Below are positions 4,381-64,000 of a DNA stretch of 64,000 nucleotides, one piece after another (within the stretch, counting starts at the first letter, position 1; the number at the start of each line of letters is the position of its first letter). The notes beneath the pieces were generated by a model. It saw only the letters and a list, made by a program, of their open reading frames with translations, had not been told where the DNA came from and did not search any database. Position numbers and translations under genes: made by a program. The stretch lies in contig OY830043.1 in NCBI GenBank assembly GCA_963692675.1, positions 99,008-163,007 of the forward strand, read 5' to 3'. Source of the stretch: Mycoplasmatales bacterium (GTDB lineage Bacteria; Bacillota_I; Bacilli_A; Mycoplasmatales; G963692675).

Positions 4381-5373
4381 TTATAATTGAGCAATATGTT
4401 TAACTAATCTTACAAATTGAGATACATATGACATTTCATTATCATATCAAGCCACTACCTTAACAAGAGTATGGTCTTGAGAGCTAATTACTCTGGTTAA
4501 TGATGGATCAAATAAAGAACCATAAGAGGTTCCAATAATGTCAGTAGAAACAATTGGTTTTGTTACATAAGCAAATGAATCATTTTTTTCTTCTTTCATT
4601 GCTTCATTGACATCTTTAACTGTTACATGTTGAACAACTTCAGCAGTTAAATCAACAATTGAACCAGTAACTACCGGTGCTCTAATTGCAAATCCATCTA
4701 GTTTACCAGCTAATTCTGGAATTACTAAACCAATTGCAGCTGCAGCTCCAGTGGTAGTTGGAATTAGATTAGCAAGGGAACTTCTACCCCTTCGTAGATC
4801 TTTATGTGGCAAATCAAGTATTTTTTGATCATTAGTTGCTGCATGTACAGTAGTCATTAAACCGTTCAAAATAGTGAAATGATCATGTAAAGCTTTGACT
4901 AATGGAGCTAAGCAATTAGTAGTACATGATGCAGCAGAAAGAATATTATCTGATGCAGTAACATTTTTATGATTAACATTATAAACTATTGTTTTAACAT
5001 CTGAACCTGCAGGTGCTGAAATCACTACCTTTTTTGCTCCTGCTTTTAGATGCTTTGATGCTAGTTCTTTAGTTCTAAAAAAACCAGTAGATTCTATTAC
5101 TAAATCAATACCTAATTCTCTTAATGGTAACTTCTCAGGATCTCGTTCTGATAATACCTGTAAATGCTTTCCATTTACAATAATGCTTTTTTCTGTATGA
5201 CTAATTTTATCTCGATGAAATGAACCCTGGGCACTATCAAACTCTAATAAATAAGCAAGAGTTGCTGGGGTTGTTAAATCATTTACTGCAACTACTTCAT
5301 TATTACTATCTGCACTTAATAAGCGATAAGCAAGTCTCCCTATTCTTCCAAATCCATTTATTAATATTCTCAT
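4381..5373 (-). CDS. gap: glyceraldehyde-3-phosphate dehydrogenase
   Basis: Track ORF 4447-5373 continues through a TGA to a TAA at 4381. Has INGFGRIGR and the active site SCTTNCLAP; AGGAGG Shine-Dalgarno upstream. Confidence 0.93.
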
Positions 5374-7522: not shown

Positions 7523-10500
7523 TTAAAAAGATAAATATCATAAATATGTAATTAATGTTTTCATTAAATCAGCAAATCATTCATTTGTTGTTGTTGAAGT
7601 TTTAAATTGGAAAAATGCATGAGATAATGCTTTCATAAAGTCATCAGTGTTCACCAATGACATATAATCAGAACCAGCAGATTCAATAAATGCTTCCATG
7701 GTATAATCTACTTGATTAGAAGTAATTCCACATCATTCATTATCTGCTGGAGCAACTAATTCTTGAAATTCATTAGTTGAACATGTTGTAATTTTAATAG
7801 GATCATGAAATTGAATTTCTTTATAAAAAGGATGATTATTAGAAAATTGAAAACTATTTCTTTGGCCCCCAATAAATTGTTGATCTTTCATACTGCTAAT
7901 TATGTTTTTAACAAAACTTAAAGGGATTGAGCGAAAACCAAGTGTTAAAGTCATATTGCGCATTTCTGAAGAAATTTTATCACTCATAAATTGATATGCT
8001 TTTTGGACTTCCCTACTTAAGTCATTATTTCCTTGATACTTTACAGGTAAATAATCCATAATATTATTGCTATTATTACTTGTCCATGTTATCATGCTTT
8101 GAGGATCATACCCATTACTTTTACTTTTAATATAGTTATTTATGACATCCTGATACTTTCCATTTGGTTGATTAACTTCAAAAATTTTTCCTATTTCTCA
8201 TAAGCCAGTTTGTTTTTCAGATTTATAAATCCCAGTAGTTGGTTTATGAACATACTTTGAGTTAATTCAAACAGTTCTAGTTGGTTCACCAAAATAGGTG
8301 GCAACATCAGCAATATTTTGTAACATTTGAATAGCATTATTATCCATTGCATTTGCTTTAAATAAATTTTGATTCCCAGTTAAAATAGCAAGATTTAAAA
8401 ATTGAATAAAATTTTCATTTTTAGAACTTCTAAAAGTAGTTGTTAGAATTTTTTGTAAATCAATTGTTGAATAATTACTGAGAATATCTTTGATATCACT
8501 TAATCATTGATCAGAATCTTTAATTTTAAAATCAGTTATTTGTCCTGTTCTTCATCCTGCACGTACTTTTTTTTCTGAACCATTAGGATTTTGAATTTTA
8601 ATTGTTTTTAGGATTTCTGATTCTCTTATTTGATTTTTCTTTATTGTTTTTATTAATAATGTTCCTAAATCCGAATTATCATATTCATTAAACACTTCTT
8701 TCCTTAACGAATTATTGTAATATGATTCAAAATACAAATTATCAGTAAAAGCACTTTCTTGAAAAAAATGATCTGATGTCAGAGCGTGATAAAATAATTT
8801 ACCAAGAATATTTCCAATTGCTTGATAAGTATCTAACATTTCTTGATTTTGGCTAATTTCAGTATCATATTTTGATAATAAAAAACTAACAAAATGACTT
8901 TGAAATTGAAGTCCCTTAGAACCTAAAAAGCGATTCAACACAAAATTACTCGCCATGCTTTTTAATAACTCATAATTCATCACTGGCGGATTTTGATAAA
9001 TATCATATTCATCGGAGTTATAAAGTGATTTTCGAACAAGTAATAAATTTGTATTATAATTTAAATTTTTATTTGATTTAGCAGCGAAAAAAAAGTTATT
9101 TTTTATTCACCCAAATGGTTTTTTTAATGGTAATGTTGGTTGGACATTAAATAAATTTGCATTATTATTACTTACATGATGGCCAAATGAAAAAAACTCA
9201 TAATAAAACCGGTTGGCCTGATTTAGATTACCATCTTTAAATAATTGAAATCAGGCTTGTTCATAAGATCGCTTTTTATTTGGGATAAAATTAAGATCAT
9301 AGCCAGGTGTCCCTACTTCCTGCAAAATATTAAAATAAATATCTTTAAGATATTGATAAAGACCACTTTTGACTCCATAATCCAGATCTTTTTCATCTAA
9401 TAATAATCGATTAAAAGCAATTGCAGTTGTATTTAGTTTTCAAGGATTCATAACTGTATTGTTTTGCAATAATGATAAATGATAAAGAAAAATTTTATTA
9501 AAATCATCTTCTTTTTTAAAAGTCTCTAATGGTGATTCAATGAGATTTTCACGTTTAGTAATAGAATCATACAATTTTCCCCTTTCTCTATCTAAATGTG
9601 GTGGTGCAATCAATCTAATTGCAACAAGACTAGGCACATTTATGTTTACATCTATTAATTCACCATTTGATTGAGCAACTTTCTGAAAAGGTTGGTCATC
9701 ATCTGGTTTTATTAATAAATGGCCATAAAATTTAGCTTTAAATGATAAAGTTATATCAGTTAATTTATCCCTTAAATAGTAAGTAAGATGATTACCAGAT
9801 GAAATTCGGGAATATTTTCTTGTGTAAGGCTCCTCATCCCCTCAAAGAAAAACATATGGATATTGATTATTGAAATCAGAAAAAATTTTATTATGGACAC
9901 TATCATAAACAATGTGGGTTTTTGCTTTAGATTTTTGAAAAATGTCATTCATGGTTCAGTCAGTTGAATAAGTAGTAGTTGCATCTCTAATTTCATATGT
10001 TAATGCAGGATTAGAACTTCTTTCACAATGTGGATTAACAATCGCCACATCATAATAGCATCTTAAACCTTTAGTTAAGGAACTTGTTGCTACATAACCA
10101 AAAGAATTAGCAGTCCGAGAAACAGTGTAAATTTTAGTAAGATCAGCATCTTCTCATAAGTTATAAAAATAATTATTGTTTTCATTTATTGTTGTATAAT
10201 TTCAATCAATACCTTGATAAGTAGTATCAACTGCTTTTTTACTACCATCACTACTTATAATTAGATTTTTCTTGGCGTTGATTGTTGAATTTAAATCAGT
10301 TTGTAAATAATCCTGATATAATCTATTAAATTCACTTGAATATGCATTTACATTTTTCATTTCATCAATTTTGCTTGATAAATCACTTTGGATTTTTTCA
10401 GATTCCGAAAACTTAACCTTATTATTTATTTTTGGCAATGCAACTACAATACTTAAAAATATAGTAATTATTAAAATACCAATGACTAATGATAAAAAAG

Positions 10501-10558
10501 CATATGGATTAATTTTTCTTGTTAACTGCTTTATTTGTTTCAAAATCATGTTTATCAT
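7523..10558 (-). CDS. large membrane-anchored protein of unknown function (1011 aa)
   Basis: Four track fragments (10202-10558, 9440-9637, 8552-8983, 7733-8095) share one frame. I checked the 3' end codon by codon to the TAA at 7523. One N-terminal TM helix (FLSLVIGILIITIFLSIVVAL); no motif recognised. Confidence 0.6.
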
Positions 10559-26034: not shown

Positions 26035-28020
26035 CTAATGGTTTATTGCTCGCATGAAGTGATGTCAAATAAACTTACCATAAAAAATGACTAGAGGAAG
26101 AAGTAAAATAACCCCTCCTTCTAATGCTCCTAAAGCAATACCAGCATCACTGTCTCCTCATGTTACACTTAATGAAATAAGGAGTGCTCCTAATATTATT
26201 GATGCTCCAATAAGAACTACGTTTTTTCTAATATATCTAAGTGCTCCTTGTGCTCCAACTCTTCTTTTGGCAATGTGACAAAGTTTTTCCCTTCTTTCTG
26301 GGGTCATTTTTCTTCGAATAGGAACCTTTTTGCCTTGAGCTCTTAATCTGGCATTATTAATTCTACCACTAAGAAGAATAAATGGTGTTCAAATAACCAT
26401 TGCAATCAATAAGTTGGCAACTGCTAATAATAATCCTTGATAAGCAAAACCGGTAGCAAATAATCCTCCTATTCCCGCGGGTATTGTTCAAGGTATTTGA
26501 ACAATAGTTGGTGGGACAGCTTCAAATACATCAAGTGCTAAATAGGTAGAAACTACCAAAATTGGCATTGTGAACATTCAAGGAATTACATAAACTGGGT
26601 TTGCAACCATTGGTACACCAAAAGTTACAGGTTCATTAATTTGAAATACTCCTGAAGGTAATGCAAACTTTGCAACCTCTACTTCTTCTTTTCGACGTTT
26701 TAAAATCATTGTCATAAAGATTCATCCAAGAGTAGCACAGGTTCCACCTAGGAAAATATATGCATCAAATGTTCCTCCTACAAAGGCAGGATAATCTGCA
26801 CTAACAACTGTTGGATCACCTACACCAGCAGCTTTATTATCAATGTTTTGTAGTAACAATGGTAATCAAAAAACAAAAACTCCATTAACAATATTGGTTC
26901 CATGAAGACCAAAGAATCAGAAAAAACCAATTAAAAAGACATATAGAATAGCTAACCCAAAATTAGCTGATGGATCTGATGCCAGCTTTAAGAATGGTTC
27001 TTGAAGCCCGATATTCATTGCGTCAGCAAATGTTCATCCATTTCCGCCATTAACTACTTTATCTACCTCATAGAATTTAGCAATAGGGCGATAAATTGAT
27101 ACAATTCGATCTCCTGCTGCATTCATTTCTCATGCTTGACGAGAATATCCTTCTAAAGCACTTGGTGCTGCAGTAAGGTCAGCTACTGTGCCTGATTGTG
27201 TTACAACTGATGTAGTTTTACCTAATTCATGAGTTGTTCCAGCTCATAGTGTTTGAACCTTATCAATATAAGTTGGATCAGTTACCTGTTCAAAATATTG
27301 TTTTGATTCAGTTGCTGTTGCATCTGTTAAATATGTTGGTACAATGAAAATTGCATTTAAAGCAGCAATAATTATTGCTGTTAAAATGACTGGTATCATT
27401 TTTGAAAAAGCTTTTGCAACAGCAGGTGGTACTCCTTCAGGTAAAGATATTAATAATTTATCCACCTTACACAAAGAAACAAAAACTTCTGTTGCAACAA
27501 TTCCTACAACCAAAGAAGCAAAAACTCCTGAAGTTCCATAAAAAGATGTTTGGCCACCAGTAGCTATTACAAAACAACCTAATGCCACTAATGCTGCCAT
27601 AACAGGATGTTCAAATCTACGAGATCTTGCCAAAAAATAACCTAATGCTAAAGGCAGGTAAATTGAAATACTGCCTAAAGTACCTGAAAAGATACTAGCG
27701 GAAACAACAGTTCCTAAAATTCTAGAATCATAGAAAGCTAATGATGCCCCACTGGTTTTTGCAACTGCAGTATTTGATCATTCAGCAAATAAACCATGGA
27801 TTGATGATTGGTGTGCTCCTCAGCCACCAAACACAACAGTAATTACTAAAACTGCAACAGCTCCAGCAATAATTAAAGGTGTAATTAGAGCAAAGCCATC
27901 TCTTATTGAAGATAGGTGCCGCTGATTACCAATTTTGGCCATTGCGGGCACAAGTTTCGTATTAAGAAATTCATCTAAGCCTCCCGATTTCTTTTTTAAA
28001 GTCTGATGTTGTTCACTCAT
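26035..28020 (-). CDS. PTS cellobiose/chitobiose-family EIIC permease, enlarged (661 aa)
   Basis: I translated 27244 down to 26035 codon by codon: only TGA interruptions, with a TAG stop at 26035. ATG at 28020 lies 5 nt after GGAGG. Has the typical EIIC N-terminus (LVPAMAKIGNQRHLSSIRDGF). Confidence 0.85.
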
Positions 28021-28499
28021 ACTTACCTCCATAAATTACTTTATATTATTTTACTATAAAAAAAACCAAGCTGTAAAATTTTACAATATTAAGTAATAAT
28101 GGTTTTCATTATACTTGTTATTAAAAATCTTTTTTTACAACTAAAATTAAAAAAAATTAAAAAAGTGCTAGTTTATCTATCTTGAAATTTATTAACCATA
28201 CATAATAATTTACCTGCAAAAAAGAGTTAGAATTAATGTTTAATTAAAGTAGGAAATTACATAAAGTTAAAGTAGGTAGCAATAAATAAATTGTAGTATT
28301 ATTTTAAGAATGATTAAAAATAAAAAAACACCTTTAAAAATATCAGTAGTTATATTTCATATATAATCCTTAATTAGATTTAATGCTGATTCTTTTTTAA
28401 CATTAAAAAAAGTAAATAATGATTCCAATCAATTAACTAGAATTTATATCAATACATATTGAATTATTAAATAATTTTCTTATTTATAATTAACCAAAA

Positions 28500-29885
28500 C
28501 TAGATTTTTACATCAACTTCTTTTTGCATAATGATGTCTTTAAACCAATATGCTGATTTTTTTGGAATGCGATTACCTGTTTTCAAATCTAGTCGGAAAA
28601 CTCCATAACGATTTTTATAAGCATTTAATCATGATCAATTATCAATATAAGTTCACATAGAATATCCACAACAATTTGATCCTTCAGCAACTGCTTTTGC
28701 AACTCAGGCTAAATGTTCCCCATGAAACTGAATACGATAATCATCTTGTACTTGACCATCTTCATTAAGAAGTTTTTCCTCACCTTCAACACCCATACCA
28801 TTTTCAGTAATCATACATTTAATATTGTTGTAATGATTTTTTAGAGTCATTAAAACATCATAAATTGCTGGAGGATAAATTTCCCATCCCCTGGAAACAT
28901 TCATTCTTGCCTTGGGTCAATGATATAAATTAAAAAAACTAGAGAAATCAAGTTGATCATTATTTAAGATAGCTTTCGGTGCACAAACCCGAGATGGTGC
29001 ATAATAATTTATCCCAATTAAATCTACAATCCCCTTTTTAATTAATTCCTGATCACCTTTTTCTTTCTTAATACTAATATTTTTACTTTTAAGTAATTCA
29101 AAAAAATAATTGTCATATGCTCCCTTGATTGCTGGCTCTAGAAAACAAATGTGTAATAAATGGTCAGCATTATTTGCTGCTAATACATCCTCAGGACTAT
29201 TTGTTTTAGGAATTGGATGAAGTAAATTTAAAATAAGTCCTATTTCGCCATCTTTTATTTTTTGTTTACGGAATTCTTTAACAGCTAAAGCATGAGCAAG
29301 AACTAAATGATATTGAACTTGATAACATCGTTTAAAATCCTTTACACATGGATAATGTTTATCTAATAAATAACCACAAGTTGCAACAACAATTGGTTCA
29401 TTAAATGTAAATCATATTTTTACTCGATCAGAAAAAAGTTCAAAACAACGCTTAGCAAAAACCCCAAACAAACGAACAACTTCTCTTGATTCTCATCCTC
29501 CTAATTTTTGAGCTCACATTGGCATATCAAAATGAAATAAATGTAATATAGGTTTAATTCCATGCAAAATCATTTCATTGATTAAATTATTGTAGTGTTT
29601 AAGGGCCCGTTTACAAATTCTTTTTCCATCTGGAAATAAACGCGACCAAGAAATAGAAGTATTAAGAATTTTGTATCCCAATCACTTAGCTAATTTAATA
29701 TCTTTTTTATAATGTATGGAACTGTGATTTAATACTGGTTGTTGTTGATAAAAACGCTCCGGTTCCTTTTTATATCAATATGATCAGATATCATCTACTC
29801 TACCAGGTCCTTTATCAAAGTTATATATTTGGGGAGAACAAGTTGAGGAACCAAATAAAAAATTCTTAGGAAATTTATAAATCAT
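28500..29885 (-). CDS. GH1 6-phospho-beta-glucosidase
   Basis: ATG at 29885 follows AGGAGG. GH1 motifs are present: TFNEP (acid/base Glu) and ITENGMG (nucleophile Glu). 461 aa. Confidence 0.88.
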
Positions 29886-54066: not shown

Positions 54067-54642
54067 TTAAAATCTATTAGCTAATTTATGATTTCAGTTT
54101 TTTACTGGCATATAAGAACATTTTGCTTGATGATCAAAAGCAAATATTGAGCATCAACTTTCTAGAACAACAAATAATCCAATTAATGGCATTAATGAAA
54201 AAGATACAATAAACAGAGCCTTTCAAAAAGCAAGTTTATGAATCCCTGCTTGCACTTTGCATATGTGACGAAAAAGTCAAATGTTTAATATAAATTGAAA
54301 TAAGATCACATAGCTTAATAAAGAAAGTCCTCCAATTATTACCAGTTCGTCAGTTTTATGTGAAAAAATGTCAATAATTCAATTTGGAACATTTTCATCT
54401 CTAATAGCTGCAGCTATATCATAATTAAATGCATCATGCACTCAGTCAGCAGCATTATTTGGTAAAACATCATATAATCAGGCTGTTTCTCCAACTACTG
54501 ATAAAATTGCTATTAAAGTAGCAATGATTAATGGAATAAGAATTAATACCCCAATAAAGATATTCATTACTGCACCATATTTCAACATTAAAAGCCTTTT
54601 TTCTAAAAAAACTTGCTTTTTATATCCTATATTTCTTTTCAT
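54067..54642 (-). CDS. multi-TM membrane protein, family B copy 2 (191 aa)
   Basis: ORF 54478-54660 extends through TGA codons to a TAA at 54067. ATG at 54642 follows GGGGAGGAAAT. Colinear paralog of 55409-55969. Confidence 0.6.
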
Positions 54643-54667
54643 ATTTCCTCCCCAAAACATGTTTACC

Positions 54668-55384
54668 TTAATAAAATCGATTGCATCTTTCCATTGATGC
54701 TAAATCCATTTCTAAGTTTTCTATTCTTTGATTCTGTCTTCTTTTATTTAAGTATATATTTTCCTTAATTCTACTGTTATTTTTTTCTAAATCTCAAATC
54801 CTTTTTTTAAGTTCTAACTTAAGAGAATTTGGAGACATAGCCTTGTGTCAACATTGGTTTTTAAAATGATTATTTTCATTAACATAATCATTTTTTTCTT
54901 GTGTGCAAGTAGTTATGACTGGCTTTCTTATGATTGGAGTTCTGTTGGCACTCACATACTGGTTAGTTAGTAAAGCTTCTTGTTTAACAGTTATTCCTGT
55001 TTTTAAACCAACTAAACCAATTAACATAAATACTCCACCACCAATACCTAAACTAAGTAACATTGCCATGATAAAATAACCTAAGTGAATTTTTGACTTA
55101 CTTCTAACTAAGCGGTTAATCTTTCCTAGTGGACACACTCCTACTAGAAAAAACATGCTAACTAGAGCAATGCTAATTGCAATTGGTTTAAGTATGTTGA
55201 GTGTTGAAACATTATCACTAAATAATCATTCATCAATACTACTTTTACTGACATTTAATGGATCAAAAATATTATCCATTATTAATGTATAAAAATTATC
55301 AACTAACTGCATTAATGTAAATGCTACACCCACTAGCAGTATTACCACAATGTTTAACACTGCTCCAAATTTATATATATTCAT
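54668..55384 (-). CDS. multi-TM membrane protein with coiled-coil/Arg-rich tail, family A copy 2 (238 aa)
   Basis: ATG at 55384 follows GGGGAGGAAAT. ORF 54848-55156 is the central fragment. The N-terminal 140 aa and the C-terminal RIENLEMDLAS motif match 55994-56713. Confidence 0.65.
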
Positions 55385-55408
55385 ATTTCCTCCCCAAAAA
55401 ATACTTTA

Positions 55409-55969
55409 TTAATATTTATAATACGGTTGTCTTATTGCTTTATAACCTTTAACTCTTCTATGAGCTGATTCAGGTGAATCAAAACTAAGTAATAACACAA
55501 AAATGGTTGTTACTCACATAAATGAAAAAATAGTCACTAATAAGGCTTTTCCTAATGCTAATTTACAAACCCCATTTGTTACCCGACTAGTATGCTTTAA
55601 TAACCATCCATTTAAAAATAATTGTACAAAAACAATTCAGCCTAAAATAACCAAACTACCAATCATTAATAGTTTATCAACATCTTGCGCTAAGATGTCA
55701 TTAATTCATTCTGGTAGGTTTTCTTTTGCTAATGCTTTTTCGATATCAAAAGCTAATACTTTCTCGATTCACTCACCCCAATTTGCAGGTAAAATATCAA
55801 ATAATAACTTTATTTCTCCAGTTACAGATAAGATACTAATAACTACTATCAAGATAATCGGAATTAGTAGCAAAATACCTAAAAAAATATTAAATAAAGC
55901 ACTAAATCTTAATCATCCAACTCTTTTATCAAAAACTCCTATTACAGAGCTAACTCTTTTTTGTCTCAT
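55409..55969 (-). CDS. multi-TM membrane protein, family B copy 1 (186 aa)
   Basis: Hand-translated and frame-checked from ATG 55969 to TAA 55409, with several TGA=Trp codons. NIFLGILLLIPIILIVVISILSVTGE aligns with copy 2. The plus-strand track ORF 55503-55997 is antisense to it. Confidence 0.6.
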
Positions 55970-55993
55970 TTTTTCTCCCCAAAATTTCCTAAC

Positions 55994-56713
55994 TTAACGT
56001 CGGTTACGTCTCCTTGTTGATGCTAAATCCATTTCTAAGTTTTCGATTCTTCGATTTTGTCTTCTTTCAGTAAAATATGCATTTTCTTCCATTCTTACAT
56101 TATGTCTTTTTAAATCTCGGATTCTCTTTTTTAATTCCATTACAGAAGCATCCTGAGCTCCTCTTTTATGAAATAAGCCTTGAGAATACTGTTCATCACT
56201 TTCATTAACATAATCCCCATCAGCTGCTACATAACTGTTTTGATCCAAAATATCAAATGTTCGATCATCTTCTTGAACATACTGATACTGATTATCTAGC
56301 AGTTGGGATTGTTTGACATATATTCCAGATCTTAAACCAACTAAACCAATCAACATAAATAATCCACCGCCAAAACCTAAACTAAGTAACATTGCAAAAA
56401 CAAAATAAAGAAGCTTAACTTTTGAACCACTTCTAATTAAATGCTTAATCTTGACTAATGGATACACTCCAACTAAAAAAAACATGACAATTAATCCAAC
56501 ACTAATCGCAATTGGCTTAAGCATGTTGATTGTTGAATAATTATCAATAAATAATAAATCATCAACAATATTTTTACTGACATTTAATGGATCAAAAATA
56601 TTCTCCATTACTAATGTGTAAAAACTATCAACAACATGCATTAATGCAAATGCCACACCTAATAGCAGTATTGCCACAATGTTCAACACTGCTCCAAATC
56701 TATATATATTCAT
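55994..56713 (-). CDS. multi-TM membrane protein with coiled-coil/Arg-rich tail, family A copy 1 (239 aa)
   Basis: Intact track ORF with a GGGGAGGAAAT Shine-Dalgarno. Several predicted TM helices are followed by an acidic linker and a basic heptad-like tail ...RIENLEMDLASTRRRNRR. Confidence 0.7.
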   Translation of the reverse strand: MNIYRFGAVLNIVAILLLGVAFALMHVVDSFYTLVMENIFDPLNVSKNIVDDLLFIDNYSTINMLKPIAISVGLIVMFFLVGVYPLVKIKHLIRSGSKVKLLYFVFAMLLSLGFGGGLFMLIGLVGLRSGIYVKQSQLLDNQYQYVQEDDRTFDILDQNSYVAADGDYVNESDEQYSQGLFHKRGAQDASVMELKKRIRDLKRHNVRMEENAYFTERRQNRRIENLEMDLASTRRRNRR

Positions 56714-56739
56714 ATTTCCTCCCCAAAAATACTTCTTCT

Positions 56740-57309
56740 TTATCGATGCCTATAATAAGGTCTTCTCCGAGCATTACCTCTTCTTACATCATAAGGTCTT
56801 CTTATAGCTCTAGATTGAAAGCTTATTGGTTTTTTTGCAAAACAACCAATAAGCATAAATATTCCTGTAGCTAAAGGTATTATTGAAAGAACTGAAACAA
56901 AAACTGCATATAATTTTGACATATCTGCTATTCCTTGTCTTGCCTTGGTTATATTTACTAAAAGTTTAATAGTCATAAGTATGTTTACACTAAAAACATA
57001 TGATGCTAATCCAAAAGAAACTCCCATAATTAACAGATCAATATCTTCAGTTAAAACTGTTTTAACCCAAGATGGTAAATGTGCTGTTACCATTTCTGAT
57101 GCAGAAGTAACATTAGCATCTAATAACAACTTTAATTGTTCAAGATCTGTTGAATTAGGAAGAATTATTTTTAATGACTCTACATTTCCAGTATAAAAAA
57201 ATGTTGCGATAATTCCAATACCAAGTGCTCCTAAAAACACTGGGATACCTAAAATAACATTAATTATTGCCCAAAATTTTAAAAAGGACATTCCTTTTCC
57301 TTGATTCAT
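56740..57309 (-). CDS. multi-TM membrane protein with Arg-rich tail, related architecture (189 aa)
   Basis: Intact track ORF with a GAGGAG Shine-Dalgarno. Same layout (TM1, ~55-aa loop, later helices ending GIFMLIGCF) and the tail RRPYDVRRGNARRRPYYRHR. Confidence 0.7.
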   Translation of the reverse strand: MNQGKGMSFLKFWAIINVILGIPVFLGALGIGIIATFFYTGNVESLKIILPNSTDLEQLKLLLDANVTSASEMVTAHLPSWVKTVLTEDIDLLIMGVSFGLASYVFSVNILMTIKLLVNITKARQGIADMSKLYAVFVSVLSIIPLATGIFMLIGCFAKKPISFQSRAIRRPYDVRRGNARRRPYYRHR

Positions 57310-59049: not shown

Positions 59050-59695
59050 TTAGAGCCACCTTTGTATTGTTTTCATATTTTCTATTTTAACTAATTTTAT
59101 TTAAATAAGAAGTAATTAAACTGTTTTTATTAATATAAATCCATTTTTATTGAAACATATGTTTCATTTAAATTATTATCTAATTTAAGAAATTTTAGTT
59201 CAAATTAAACATTAATTTTCAAAAAAAACTAGTTATTATTCAATTCCAATTAAAGATACTAGTTTAAATAACTTTAATGTATTTGTTTGGTAATTATAAA
59301 ATTATTAGTTAACATGGTATTATTATTTTTAATAACATTAGTATTGTTCTTAACTGAGCTTACAAACCAAGTTAAAAGAGTCATCTAATTTTTTCAAACC
59401 TCATCAACATCCTTTGAAAAGCAAGGAGTTAATTGCATTAACACAGTGTATAAATTTATATCCAATTTTATATTATTAGTATTGAAAAATTAAAACCTAA
59501 TTTTCAGATCAAGCTAGAATTAGTTTACTACTTATCATGATATTGTAATTCTAATTTCTATTTTTAAAATAAGATGAATTAAGCTTGTTTACTATCAGTT
59601 ATTAAACATATAAAGATAACATAACTTCCAAGTTAACTATAAAACAAATTTCATAATCAACTAAAATGATTTTAATAATTTAAAATGATCTATCT

Positions 59696-62365
59696 TTATG
59701 AATTGACCTTTCCAACAAAGACTTTTAATTCAGCATCACTAGCTCTTCCAAACATTTTATCATAAATCTTATTTAATTCTTCATTTGCACCATTTGTAAG
59801 TGAAGATCCAAAAACTGATTCTATATCAGGGTTGCTTACCCCAGCATTAAAATCTGCAAATCTTGGACCTCAAAAATGAAGAATCAGACGATTATTTACT
59901 GTTGTTATTTCAAATCTTATTGTTGCTTTTAATCTTGCTACACCACCACCTAATCGTACTTGTTCTCAACTAGAAGTACCAGAAGCACCACCTCTTCTCA
60001 CTGATACTTCTAGAGTTGTATCTGAAAATGGTTCCACAACCACTAAATCTGTTTCCAGAGTTGATTGCTGATTAAAATCATGTTGATAAACTCGAAAATA
60101 AGCTAGGCCTTCTGCATTAACTCCAGCTCCTGTAGGGTGAAGAACTAATGTAACAAAAAGATTTATTCGTCCAGTCTGAGTTATTCCTAAGCTAGTCAAA
60201 TCAATTTCACCTTGCTTTGCTGGAGTGTTTTGTCATGTTGTTGGATCTCCAGTAACAGAAACTTCTGCAGAGGTTCCTGAAGCAGCAGCAGGTAAACCAG
60301 TAACTTTTGCTTGTGATAAATCAAGATTTCCTCTTATTGTAGTAGTTGAATCATCTGTAGTAAGTGAAGCATTATTGCCATTATAGCCAATAGTCAAGGT
60401 TCTTTGAGTTGTTCCACTAGTAGGTGCTGTAGAAATTATCGTTGTGTCACCCTCTGCTCTTGTTGTACCGCGTACTATTAAATTTCTATTAGCCTCAATG
60501 GTATCTTCAAATTGTGCACGCTTGTTGACAGTTAAGGAAAGTACTGGTCCCACACCTGAACCTAAACCCGCTCTTCCAATTGTTACATGCCCAGTTACAG
60601 TAAGATCAGCAAAATCACTTGCTGCTGTTCCTCCTGGATTTCCAACAGTTACATCACTTAATAATGTGGTAGTTCCTTTAATTTCTGTTGTTCCTGTTAC
60701 TAATAAACTAGCTGTTGTTCCTCCAGTAGCAACATCTCCAATTTCTACATTACCCAGTAATGTAGAAGTGCTACCAACATTAACAGTTCCTGATATATCA
60801 AGATCTGCTGCTGCAGTTGTTGAGCCGACTGTAACGTCTCCTAATAATGTTGAAACTCCTTTTACTGAAGCCGTTCCTGAGACATCAAGATCAGCAGTTG
60901 CAGTAGTAGTTCCTACTGTTACATCACCTAATAAACTAGATTCTCCTCTTACTGTTAAATCTGCTGCTGCAGTTGTTGAACCAACTGTAACATCAGCAAG
61001 TAAACTTGTTGTGCCTTTAACTTCTGTTGATCCTGTTACTGTTAAATCTGCTGCTGCAGTTGTTGAACCAACTGTAACGTCTCCTAATAATGTTGAAGCT
61101 CCTTTTACTGAAGCTGTTCCTGAGACATCAAGATCAGCTGTTGCAGTAGTAGTTCCTACTGTTACATCACCTAATAAATTAGATTCTCCTCTTACTGTTA
61201 AATCTGCTGCTGCAGTTGTTGAACCAACTGTAACATCAGCAAGTAAACTTGTTGTGCCTTTAACTTCTGTTGATCCTGTTACTGTTAAATCTGCTGCTGC
61301 AGTTGTTGAGCCAACTGTAACATCTCCTAATAATGTTGATGCCCCTTTTACAGAAGCTGTTCCTGAAACATCAAGATCAGCTGTTGCAGTGGCAGTTCCT
61401 ACTGTTACATCACCTAATAAACTGGATTCTCCTGTTACTGTTAAATCAGCTGCTGTTCCTGTTGTATCCCCAATGGTTACTGTATTTAATAAAGTGGTTG
61501 TACCTCTAACTTCTACAGTGTCTGTTACAACTAAACTAGTAGATGTTGTTGATCCACTTACTGATAAACCTACAACTATTGCTCCTGTTAAATCAAGATT
61601 TCCATGAATCATGGTAGTAGAATCATCAGTTGTAATGGTATCATCTGCACCACTATATCCAATAATTAGCATTTTTTGGTTTGTTGATCCAGAAGTTGGA
61701 GGTTCATTAATTATTCTTGTATTCTCATTCAAGATTGTTTCCCCAGTAACATGCAACGTTTTTGGGTCAGCAGTGGTTCCTACAAAAAGATTAGAACTAA
61801 TGCCTAAAGGTCCTGTTGTATCGCTTAAGCTATCAAGAGCACTGCTATCAGCAGAAGTAGTTGCAAAAGCATCATGAGCAACTGAAGTTCCTGACACACT
61901 TGCTTTCATAAAATGCTTATTAATAAAATTATCTCATAATGATTCTACTTTTTCATTTACATTGGTTATTCCTTTTCCTAGCATACTTGTTTGTCCTAAA
62001 AAAACAGTTTGAAAAGTAGCATCAGGATTAGTTAGATCATCAGCACTAACTTGCTGCACTGCCCTTGCTTGAACCATCTCAGCAATATCATTTTGTAACT
62101 GTTTCTTTTCACTTTGAGGTTTAATCAGATTAGCTCCTTGTAATTGTCCTACTTTTAATTCACTTACTGGGGTGGGTTCCTTAGGTTTTAGATCACCTTC
62201 TAAAATAAAATATGCAACTGCTCCAGCACCTGCAGCTGCAGCTGCAAGTGCAAAAAAAGTTACAGCAAAAACAGCTCATCGATGAGCCTTTTTTGTAACA
62301 AACCCTTTTTTATTTTTTATTTTCCGACTTCTTCTTGGCCTTTCGAAAATTTCATTATCTTCCAT
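59696..62365 (-). CDS. membrane-anchored repeat (beta-solenoid-like) surface protein with C-terminal globular domain (889 aa)
   Basis: ATG at 62365 follows GAAGGAG. The N-terminal 152 codons, ORF 60233-61909, ORF 59966-60199 and the 3' extension to TAA 59696 were all frame-checked codon by codon; only TGA interruptions were found. Confidence 0.8.
60794..61432 (-). repeat. 243-bp (81-codon) near-perfect tandem repeat, about 2.6 copies, inside the surface-protein gene
   Basis: The DNA string aaatctgctgctgcagttgttgaaccaactgtaacatcagcaagtaaacttgttgtgcc recurs 243 nt apart. The protein unit GES(S/N)LLGDVTVGT.TATADLDVSGTASVKGASTLLGDVTVGSTTAAADLTVTGSTEVKGTTSLLADVTVGSTTAAADLTVR is repeated. Confidence 0.85.
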
Positions 62366-64000
62366 ATTTACTCCTTCAATTATGTAAACACATACTTATT
62401 ACTTCTTAATTAATTATAATATATTTATATTAATTCAATAAATATAGTAAATAATACAAATAAATTAAAATATTTTACATAAAATTATGTAATTAGAACT
62501 AAATTACATACAATTTAGTATTATTAAATCAATTATCTTTTAATAATTAGTTTTACAATTATTAGAAATTATAATTTGTTATTTTTACTATTAAGCATTA
62601 ATAATTCCATTTTATTCAAATATTTACAAAAAATCTTTAATTTTAGTTAAAATTTAATAATTAAAAAAGCAATTTCAAATTATAAAAAGGTATTTTAAAA
62701 CAAATTTAATAAAAATAATCTTCAAAATAGAAGTTATCTTTTTATAATTTAAATTGGATGAAATAAATAGATTGTGTGATCAAATTAATGTTTTTATTAT
62801 AAAAAAACTTTACTTATAAAAGCTCTTAAATTAGTTCCATCTGATTGTTAAAAGTGTATCTGGTACTTTGCTATTTCAGCAAAATTCATTGTAACCTGAA
62901 AAAATAATGTTAAATCAAACTTACAATATTTTAAAATGGATTTGAATATCCATTGGCTAATTTATTTTTTTATGTGCATTCAACCTGCCATTTCCATAAC
63001 TCTCCATGTGCAAAATCTTCCTTCTATACCTATTGGAGTAAACTTGTTGATCAGTTTGTTCAGTTAATACATTCTTATTTGAAGAAAAAATGATAGAAAT
63101 AATGTAATGGTCCAACTATAATTTATTTGAGTTGCATTTGCTAACTCATTATCTTAATGCTTCGAAACGTTTGATTGAATTATTTTAACAATATCATCTT
63201 GTAATTCTTTTTTGTTCCATAAGAGTTAATAATAGTAAGCCCATTCAATTTACCTACATTTAATGACACTTAGCAATTGTGCTTGAATCATTTGTTTTGC
63301 TGACAATTGCTACTTTACAATATTGCCTTTTGTAACATAATATCAACTGTTTCTAAAATTGCTGCAATAGCTAATGCTAAACTGTTAGAGAAACTGCTAT
63401 TCAACAATGCATTTTTTATTGTGATAATTTTGTAAAATTTTTTTAACTATTTTTCTTACTGATACTGATTTGTAAAAAAATTTATAACTTGCTGTACCTT
63501 CCTCTTTCTTATATACCTCACTTTGATTCTAACTTATCCAAAATAACGGAATAAAAAATTTTGGAAAAATAATAATGAAAATTTCAAATTAATCTATAAT
63601 TTTTTACATTACTAAATTTATAAAACCAAAAAACTAATAATGATGTTTAAATTTATGTAATTATTTTTAATGATAAATTACTATTAATTCGTAAATTTTT
63701 TATTAATCTTTAAATATTGATGATTCTATATTTAGTTAATACATAATTTAGATAATGCTTTCTAATTATAAAATTACAAAATAACCAACTAGCTAATTAA
63801 GATTTATCATTAATCAAATAAAATTATTAATCTAATGAAATATGATTGAAATTCACAAAAAAAATATTTATAATTATATTTCTAGTTTAAATGTTTCATT
63901 ATCCTAGACAAGATAAATTTTTGTATTTGAAGAAAACATGTTTTTATAATAAAGCTTTTATTTTCAATTATGCGTAAAAAAATATACAGTCTTTATTTTA

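Follow-up and report, generated by a model that had tools for sequence, protein, structure and literature searches.

Known surface proteins of mollicutes are mostly lipoproteins with short, disordered repeats. The Vsa, Vlp and Vsp proteins and the multiple banded antigen of Ureaplasma belong to multigene families with in-frame repeats that vary between strains; they are lipoproteins whose short repeats are mostly unstructured, and they are subject to phase-variation switches. In Mycoplasma pulmonis, it is not a tip domain but the length of the repeat region of Vsa that controls shielding and adherence. As for structured repeats, the head of the adhesin YadA is a short-period beta-roll, proteins of the Peptidase_S74, YadA_anchor, YadA_stalk, ESPR and Collar families form obligate trimers, and bactofilins are cytoplasmic, polymer-forming beta-helices with glycine at the turns and coils of about 18 amino acids (aa). 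Here we describe a gene of a Mycoplasmatales bacterium (assembly GCA_963692675.1, contig OY830043.1, positions 99,008 to 163,007) which codes for an 889-aa protein with an N-terminal membrane anchor and a long periodic repeat array. The gene is located on the minus strand at 59696–62365 of the 64,000-nucleotide (nt) stretch analyzed, called the window below, to which all coordinates refer unless another contig is named. The protein is best explained as a type II (N-in/C-out) membrane-anchored surface fibre, with a solenoid stalk of strain-variable length and an orphan distal domain; we put the probability of this reading at roughly 0.55.

Gene and domain layout

Under genetic code 4, the gene forms a single frame without TAA or TAG, with five in-frame TGA tryptophan codons (codons 30, 144, 711, 800, and 832). 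Code 4 is justified because all 23 of 23 long open reading frames (ORFs) of the window need TGA to be read as tryptophan, and because tryptophan is mostly encoded by TGA (186 TGA vs 23 TGG codons outside the gene). An in-frame TAA/TAG stop lies 33 nt upstream of the start codon, ATG at 62365; the start, the ribosome binding site and about 300 nt of upstream sequence are kept in three related contigs. The product is identical to the public protein P0010 (NCBI and ENA sources; contig of 791,436 bp). A previous interpretation by a model that had seen only the letters and their ORFs, referred to as the sequence-only reading, had proposed one code-4 gene from ATG 62365 to TAA 59696, preceded by a GAAGGAG Shine-Dalgarno sequence, and translation, identity to P0010 and the conserved start bear this out. 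The features of the gene and its product are as follows.

62366–62660, minus strand: AT-rich upstream region, presumed to bear the promoter (alignment A2, mean column identity 84%)
62371–62377, minus strand: Shine-Dalgarno sequence GAAGGAG, 5 nt before the ATG, invariant in four strains
59696–62365, minus strand: complete coding sequence, 889 codons plus TAA, code 4 (translation; identity to P0010; selection analysis versus contigs L004 and L001)
62279–62365, minus strand: basic, presumably cytoplasmic tail, residues 1–29 (11 Lys/Arg, 4 Asp/Glu; residue count)
62201–62278, minus strand: single transmembrane signal-anchor, residues 30–55 (WAVFAVTFFALAAAAAGAGAVAYFIL; hydropathy scan; AlphaFold helix 34–52)
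61721–62200, minus strand: conserved membrane-proximal N-terminal domain (N-domain), predicted helical, residues 56–215 (invariant columns of alignment A1; paralog identity)
61493–61720, minus strand: cap copy 1 and transition into the array, residues 216–291 (BLASTP versus copy 2)
60566–61492, minus strand: repeat array, residues 292–600, 11 units of 23–32 aa in 81-aa super-repeats of 23+29+29 aa (Tandem Repeats Finder, TRF; unit logo)
60803–61455, minus strand: near-identical DNA repeats inside the array (TRF: 243 nt, 2.7 copies, 95% matches)
60266–60565, minus strand: degenerate last coils and cap copy 2, residues 601–700 (alignment A1; BLASTP)
59699–60265, minus strand: C-terminal domain (C-domain) of type 1, non-repetitive, residues 701–889 (DSSP of a low-confidence model)

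The ratio of non-synonymous to synonymous substitutions (dN/dS) was 0.25 in comparison with the ortholog of contig L004 (887 aa) and 0.33 with that of L001 (924 aa), within the range of 0.07–0.54 observed for neighbouring genes. No domain exceeded 1, the C-domain having values of 0.13–0.45. The gene is real and under purifying selection. An antisense ORF of 647 aa at 60444–62387 (plus strand) is taken as spurious, since selection acts on the sense frame; it appears to be a by-product of a repeat which is stop-poor on both strands. A promoter scan of the upstream region returned no more sites than were found in shuffled sequence.

The protein has a basic N-terminus and only one hydrophobic segment (about residues 30–56), as the sequence-only reading had stated. 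In the 30 residues following this segment, four Lys/Arg are balanced by four Asp/Glu. According to the positive-inside rule, the basic flank of a transmembrane helix stays in the cytoplasm; we therefore infer that the short tail is cytoplasmic, that one helix spans the membrane, and that everything after residue 56 is outside. The protein contains no cysteine and hence no lipobox. What had been described as a linker of about 100 aa is in fact a conserved, predicted helical domain of about 160 aa (residues 56–215), with helices at 83–181 in a low-confidence AlphaFold model. Its identity among paralogs, 57–61%, makes it the best-conserved part of the family, as compared to 30–37% for the C-domain. 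The motif SALDSLSDTTGPLGISSNLFVGTTADPKTLHVTG closes the domain and forms the passage to the beta array. No relatives of the N-domain outside the family were found in Pfam, in the PDB, or by a HMMER search of 1.84 billion proteins.

The array is long and strictly periodic. TRF detected 87-nt sub-units within the 243-nt repeat, the units of the protein measure 24, 29, 29, 23, 29, 29, 23, 29, 29, and 32 aa, and self-identity peaks at lags of 81, 29, and 52 aa, in agreement with the super-repeats of 29+29+23 aa recognized previously. When 66 units with lengths of 23, 29 or 30 aa, taken from 11 proteins of the family, were combined in a logo, the following positions proved invariant or nearly so: L1, L2, V5, V/I7, G8, A14, D15, L16, V18, G20, V24, and G26. 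The polar residues between these positions are mostly threonine, T6 being conserved to 86–100%. Strand-turn modules of the type h-x-V-x-G (h, hydrophobic) occur three times per 29-aa unit and twice per 23-aa unit, in an invariant pattern.

The array is flanked by a duplicated cap with the motif PTSG...IGY.G...TTDDSTT.I.GNLDL..A.V.GL. The duplication postulated by the sequence-only reading is real, the two copies sharing 51% identity over 76 aa (BLASTP, E=2e-13). Copy 1 is missing at its position in paralogs with a type-2 C-domain (see below), and the motif DDSTT.I.GNL.L..A.V.GL precedes the C-domain in every family member. The C-domain itself was correctly described as non-repetitive with a strand-like pattern; it is predicted to be beta-rich and to end in two helices (DSSP, low-confidence model). 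No match outside the family was found for it in the PDB (profile A6), Pfam, or the library of 1.84 billion proteins, and like the sequence-only reading we treat it as no more than a candidate binding head.

Tandem paralogs and variation between strains

A family search among 5.8 billion proteins returned nine relatives. With the family profile A1, HMMER retrieved 160 proteins at E ≤ 1e-3 from 1.84 billion representatives; the threshold of E ≤ 1e-30 was passed by only 6, each a family member or a fragment of one, and they come from a few contigs. About a dozen sequences of the family are known. Pattern scans of the GTDB species genomes and of Joint Genome Institute (JGI) metagenomes gave no further relatives; one degenerate pattern contained tryptophan, which is encoded by TGA here, and would miss them, while the other patterns should have matched. 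A word-indexed protein search had poor recall and missed known family members in two of three runs, so its negatives do not show absence. Neither Pfam and NCBIfam for the 889-aa protein nor Pfam for all nine family members gave a match at E ≤ 1; the protein is a member of no named family, in line with the sequence-only reading. Sequence searches of the PDB with the profiles A1 and A6 and with two distant relatives yielded no useful match, weak similarity to left-handed beta-helix acyltransferases being seen only for a distant relative, and a search of the literature on this type of protein in mollicutes found nothing relevant. The gene gapA of the window (4381–5373, minus strand) codes for a protein without any relative of at least 90% identity among 15 billion proteins beyond the same few metagenome contigs; as the 90%-identity cluster of GapA has no other member, sampling of the lineage is evidently very sparse.

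Three to five paralogs are arranged in tandem on one strand in the related contigs L001 and L003, and the genes next to them downstream correspond to those of the window. The order in L003 is a 1257-aa, a 930-aa and a 654-aa copy, a 62-aa remnant which consists only of tail and transmembrane helix, and the ortholog of the 889-aa protein. In L001/L002, a broken copy is followed by copies of 742 aa and 610 aa, a 62-aa remnant, the 924-aa ortholog, and the 709-aa protein P0013. Two further members, P0005 and P0007, are on the same 791-kb contig as the 889-aa protein and, by synteny, should be located just beyond the end of the window. All members have in common the basic tail, the transmembrane helix, the N-domain, the motif DTTGPLGISSNLFVGTT.DPKTLHVTG, the repeat array and the DDSTT motif. 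C-domains of type 1 are present in the 889-aa protein, its orthologs, and P0013 (37% identity over 235 aa), and those of the other members (type 2) can be aligned to type 1 only over 70–100 aa with 30–37% identity.

P0013 (L001, 14055–16184), the extra member directly downstream of the ortholog, has a cytoplasmic tail in which a Lys-rich sequence (KKATSTKKPADIISKTSTAASR) is repeated in tandem about seven times over some 200 aa. Its counterpart place in the window is 59050–59695, where about 650 nt of non-coding sequence are all that the window and L004 contain. Upstream of the gene, 1.6 kb (62366–64000) are devoid of ORFs of at least 80 aa and are 99% identical to L003 (L003 6041–10000). The 62-aa ORF for tail and transmembrane helix occurs in relatives about 1.9 kb upstream of the start, which would be just beyond the end of the window, and 63160–63216 retains a faint trace of the N-domain motif (NKKELQDDIVKIIQ). 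The upstream spacer looks like a decayed family member.

Long-read assemblies show the orthologs (887, 889, and 924 aa) to vary in how many units they have and in which order. The unit lengths are 24, 29, 29, 29, 23, 29, 29, 23, 29, and 32 aa in P0002, and 24, 29, 32, 23, 29, 30, 29, 29, 23, 29, and 32 aa in P0003. P0001 (808 aa) lacks exactly 81 aa. P0004 is truncated by a frameshift near a contig end; apart from this, its contig shares 99% identity with the window, and the truncation is probably a sequencing error. Synonymous divergence of the array between strains amounts to 0.19–0.33, as compared to 95% identity of the 243-nt repeats within the gene. The repeats within the gene have therefore been homogenized or recently duplicated, and they are a likely substrate for changes in copy number. 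Versus L004, the proportion of synonymous differences (pS) is 0–0.04 in the 5' half of the gene (61493–62200, N-domain and cap 1) and 0.25–0.30 in the flanking genes for a 202-aa protein and an AsnA-like protein, which points to a recent event of recombination or gene conversion within that half.

Such variability is also what would be expected of a size-variable surface coat or antigen which is not an adhesin, but evades host immunity or phages by means of its paralogs and copy number. This length-dependent coat or shield is the main functional rival of a fibre that acts by its tip, and the tandem paralogs, the strain differences in number and order of units, the 95% identical internal DNA repeats, a dN/dS that is moderately high for the genome, and the remnants of decayed copies upstream all agree with it. 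However, the protein is not a lipoprotein, as it has no cysteine, and the conserved upstream region of about 300 nt contains no homopolymer or short-repeat tract for phase variation in any of four strains; inversion systems were not searched for genome-wide. Moreover, no domain has a dN/dS above 1, and the C-domain, which is 95% identical to that of L001 with a dN/dS of 0.13, appears to have a conserved function and not to undergo antigenic drift. We regard a coat function as unlikely; adhesion or ligand binding by the distal domain of the proposed fibre would be the most likely role.

Predicted fold and genomic setting

An AlphaFold model of the array alone (residues 292–600) reached a pLDDT (predicted local distance difference test) of 64.9 and a pTM (predicted template modelling score) of 0.69. 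It consists of 62% strand, and the strands match the unit boundaries exactly. The input was alignment A4, a pseudo-alignment in which 16 repeat windows excised from family members form the rows. In a Foldseek comparison of this model with the PDB, nearly all of the top 50 matches were parallel beta-solenoids, among them Ag43, TibA, the antifreeze protein MpAFP of Marinomonas, SufB/SufD, pectinase-like proteins, a tailspike, AlgG, IcsA, tapirin, and RsaA. There is thus moderate support for one beta-solenoid coil per unit. The conserved positions of the units also suit the inward hydrophobic ladder and regularly placed turns of such solenoids. The beta-solenoid suggested by the sequence-only reading finds backing in the periodic, all-beta array model and its solenoid-like matches, but not in any significant match or in the model of the whole protein.

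The composition of the array (Thr+Ser+Gly+Ala 55%, Thr alone 22%) and the lack of a significant structural match would also suit an unfolded or glycosylated mucin-like spacer. However, hydrophobic residues alternate at strictly conserved positions, glycine occurs at fixed positions, there is one proline in 309 residues, and the array model has the strand content and pTM given above. A mucin-like spacer is very improbable in our view, and a folded solenoid stalk is the preferred explanation of the array.

Distant matches of the family profile, with E values from 1e-27 to 1e-3, all have alignments that run from the entry motif on through the array. The proteins concerned are large, their LxVxG-type repeats measure 11–15 aa, and the alignments carry high compositional bias scores. 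When 68 of these distant array matches were scanned against Pfam, Bactofilin was found in 25, Peptidase_S74 in 17, YadA_anchor in 8, SLH in 6, YadA_stalk in 5, ESPR in 4, and Collar in 3; the repeats of distant relatives also match the LbH and Hexapep models. Judged by these similarities, the stalk repeat is of the class found in tail-fibre-like proteins, trimeric autotransporters, and S-layer-anchored (SLH) proteins, in the sense of a shared class and not of proven descent. The likeness to tail fibres and bactofilin-like windings pointed out in the sequence-only reading is therefore present in the stalk repeats at the level of the motif, while the protein itself has no Bactofilin or tail-fibre domain. 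Its novelty, which a match to a known adhesin or tail-fibre family would call into question, is touched weakly and for the stalk only.

The trimer-forming families among these relatives (Peptidase_S74, YadA_anchor, YadA_stalk, ESPR, and Collar) raise the possibility that the fibre is trimeric, either with the beta-rolls of three chains packed together, like the YadA head, or as an intertwined triple beta-helix, like the shafts of tail fibres, with the N-domain as trimerization module and with the same function at the surface. The highly conserved, outward T6 would suit a subunit interface, and the poor monomer model of the full protein fits in as well. On the other hand, the protein lacks an S74 chaperone, a coiled-coil stalk and a YadA_head match, the array already reaches a pTM of 0.69 as a monomer, and the likeness to trimer families consists in a periodic motif with high compositional bias. 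A trimer is a serious alternative, though somewhat doubtful, and we retain the solenoid stalk with one coil per unit.

Several points weigh against the solenoid-stalked fibre. The AlphaFold model of the whole protein is unreliable (pLDDT 43.7), and a Foldseek search with it was meaningless. The Foldseek matches obtained with the array model all lack significance (best E values 0.22 for the PDB and 0.023 for BFVD); the 16-row pseudo-alignment may have favoured a regular fold, and DSSP cannot tell a parallel solenoid from an antiparallel meander. The distant sequence matches may be due to a periodic motif held in common and not to shared ancestry, and since many of them belong to families of obligate trimers, a monomeric solenoid may be wrong. 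The C-domain is without a recognizable fold. As to the variation in length, P0001 is located on a 3.6-kb contig, and its missing 81 aa could result from assembly collapse.

In the fibre as we envisage it, the helical N-domain of about 160 aa beside the membrane would probably serve as a base or oligomerization module common to the paralogs. It would be followed by about 480 aa of Thr/Gly/Val/Ala-rich units of 23–32 aa, each contributing a single coil to a parallel beta-solenoid, in which Leu, Val and Ala would face inward, glycine would occupy the turns, and ladders of threonine would face outward. From 11–18 coils and a rise of about 0.48 nm, the length of the presumably rigid stalk is estimated at about 5–9 nm. 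The DDSTT motif may act as a short conserved neck, beyond which the C-domain of about 190 aa, one of two divergent tip types in the family, would be displayed at the far end of the stalk. Recombination between the near-identical 243-nt repeats could shift the length of the stalk by whole units. In the absence of a cell wall, the protein would stand out from the membrane directly, its tip contacting host or environment by adhesion or ligand binding and its stalk acting as a spacer of variable length. The gene is the last member of a tandem family that shares base and stalk repeat.

The G+C content of the window is 0.37–0.39 across 60–62 kb, as compared to 0.22–0.29 in the neighbouring kilobases. 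The sequence-only reading had noted a G+C-rich centre of 558 codons without TGA; the elevated G+C content was confirmed, but the TGA-free run comprises 566 codons (145–710), and it is due to the absence of tryptophan from the array. At codon positions 1 and 2, the G+C content of the gene is 0.53 and 0.58, respectively (0.41 and 0.33 in other genes), whereas that at position 3 (GC3) is 0.088 and thus below the value of 0.164 of other genes. Since the excess is confined to positions 1 and 2, real as it is, it is a consequence of Thr, Gly, Val and Ala codons only, and on the strength of the codon-position analysis a foreign origin of this stretch is rejected.

The surroundings of the gene are those of an ordinary chromosome. 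Genes for a Lys-rich membrane protein of 202 aa, an AsnA-like protein, pairs of small multi-transmembrane paralogs, ribosomal proteins L13 (rplM) and S9 (rpsI), and a HAD hydrolase follow downstream, and the gene order around the gene is the same in three other contigs. Farther away, the window contains glycolysis genes, glpK, and genes for a type-2 glycerol-3-phosphate oxidase, NagA, a phosphotransferase system (PTS) EIIC component, a glycoside hydrolase family 1 (GH1) enzyme and a GH19 chitinase. No phage genes were found near the gene within the window.

This setting bears on the idea that the gene codes for a phage-derived receptor-binding protein, either of a prophage or a domesticated tail fibre of a mollicute virus. 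In its favour, every family member (nine of nine) has matches to PHROG families without known function via its repeats (best match phrog_5070, 9e-12), and distant relatives bear tail-fibre domains. However, the protein has an N-terminal membrane anchor, synteny with housekeeping genes is conserved without phage genes nearby, and GC3 and codon usage fit the host genome. Furthermore, tblastn against 50,697 phage records gave nothing, and the sole match in IMG/VR is an unrelated protein with repeats of 19–20 aa. Neither a virion protein sharing the N- or C-domain nor flanking attachment sites with excision of the locus in some strains were seen. We consider a phage origin extremely unlikely, and prefer a chromosomally encoded surface fibre.

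Other genes of the window deserve mention. A membrane-anchored protein of 1176 aa with two GH19 (class I chitinase) catalytic domains is encoded at 14678–18208 (minus strand), near nagA and the genes for PTS EIIC and a GH1 glycosidase at 12837–13949 (plus strand), 26035–28032 (minus strand), and 28500–29885 (minus strand). Together, these look like a set for utilization of chitin and chitobiose, which is unusual for a mollicute with 0.79 Mb and hints at an arthropod, a fungus, or a chitin-rich diet as habitat. An affiliation with the Mycoplasma of salmonid guts, conceivable from the chitinase gene, is not supported, those genomes having 24.8–26.4% G+C and 0.66–0.70 Mb (PMC8121932) versus mostly 25–33% G+C and a 0.79-Mb contig here. 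The region 54067–57309 (minus strand) codes for five small multi-transmembrane proteins (189, 239, 186, 238, and 197 aa) of two alternating paralog types with basic C-termini; they have no match in Pfam or NCBIfam, and their arrangement is conserved in related contigs. An orphan protein of 1011 aa with an N-terminal transmembrane segment, likewise without Pfam or NCBIfam match, is encoded at 7523–10558 (minus strand).

Comparison with known systems

Tail-fibre-like proteins with a Peptidase_S74 domain (P0015, P0023, P0027, and P0030) resemble the 889-aa protein in their long arrays of h-x-V-x-G strand-turn modules and in the combination of an elongated fibre with a separate distal domain. Its entry motif SSNLFVGTTADPKTLHVTG is similar to their GNVGIG..P..KL.V.G unit. 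They match the family profile with E values of 1e-27 to 1e-10 (HMMER) and high bias, so the similarity may be one of motif only. Unlike these proteins, the 889-aa protein has no S74 or Peptidase_G2 domain (Pfam), no phage context, and an N-terminal anchor; its units of 23–32 aa are organized in 81-aa super-repeats, and its N- and C-domains are unrelated to theirs.

Bactofilins share with the array the proposed helical winding of short repeats, but the 889-aa protein does not match the Bactofilin model (PF04519) at E ≤ 1, and its array is situated on the non-basic side of a single transmembrane segment, i.e., is predicted to be extracellular. With Vsa, Vlp and Vsp it has in common the multigene family and in-frame tandem repeats that differ between strains (887, 889, and 924 aa); in contrast to these proteins, it lacks a lipobox, its repeat is long and predicted to be structured, its flanking domains are conserved, and no switch was seen upstream.

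The trimeric autotransporter adhesins of the YadA family follow a similar design of anchor, stalk and head. Their polarity is opposite, however, with a C-terminal outer-membrane barrel instead of an N-terminal transmembrane anchor, and mollicutes have no outer membrane. Pfam models of YadA_anchor (PF03895), YadA_head/Hep_Hag (PF05658), and YadA_stalk (PF05662) did not match the 889-aa protein at E ≤ 1. It is tempting to speculate that the family represents a mollicute-specific class of trimeric fibres with inverted polarity, the functional counterpart, in bacteria with neither wall nor outer membrane, of the trimeric autotransporter adhesins, composed of an N-terminal transmembrane helix and a new base, a repeat like those of tail fibres and YadA, and two new head folds, the length being set by gain and loss of 81-aa units; we regard this more specific proposal as rather doubtful.

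If the membrane-anchored surface fibre proposed here is correct, it would represent an alternative construction of adhesins or spacers for a naked membrane, based on an N-terminal helix, a structured fibre, and interchangeable units, and its base and tip domains would amount to two new folds. Its practical value is limited for now, the organism being apparently uncultured and the family comprising so few sequences.

In the Foldseek comparison, the array model came closest, though not significantly, to the beta-helical passengers of the self-associating autotransporters Ag43 and TibA and to the beta-solenoid antifreeze region of the ice-binding adhesin of Marinomonas (3p4g); of these, 3p4g gave the highest TM-score, 0.31. 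The regular solenoids of these proteins have Thr-rich outward faces, as predicted for the array. The E values are 0.2–1 at identities of 13–16%, the coils of these proteins comprise about 19 aa as compared to 23–32 aa, and the 889-aa protein differs in secretion and anchoring and in having no Ca2+-binding motifs. Nevertheless, among the systems considered, it would seem to work most like a fibrous beta-solenoid adhesin, a type of protein which as such is already well known.

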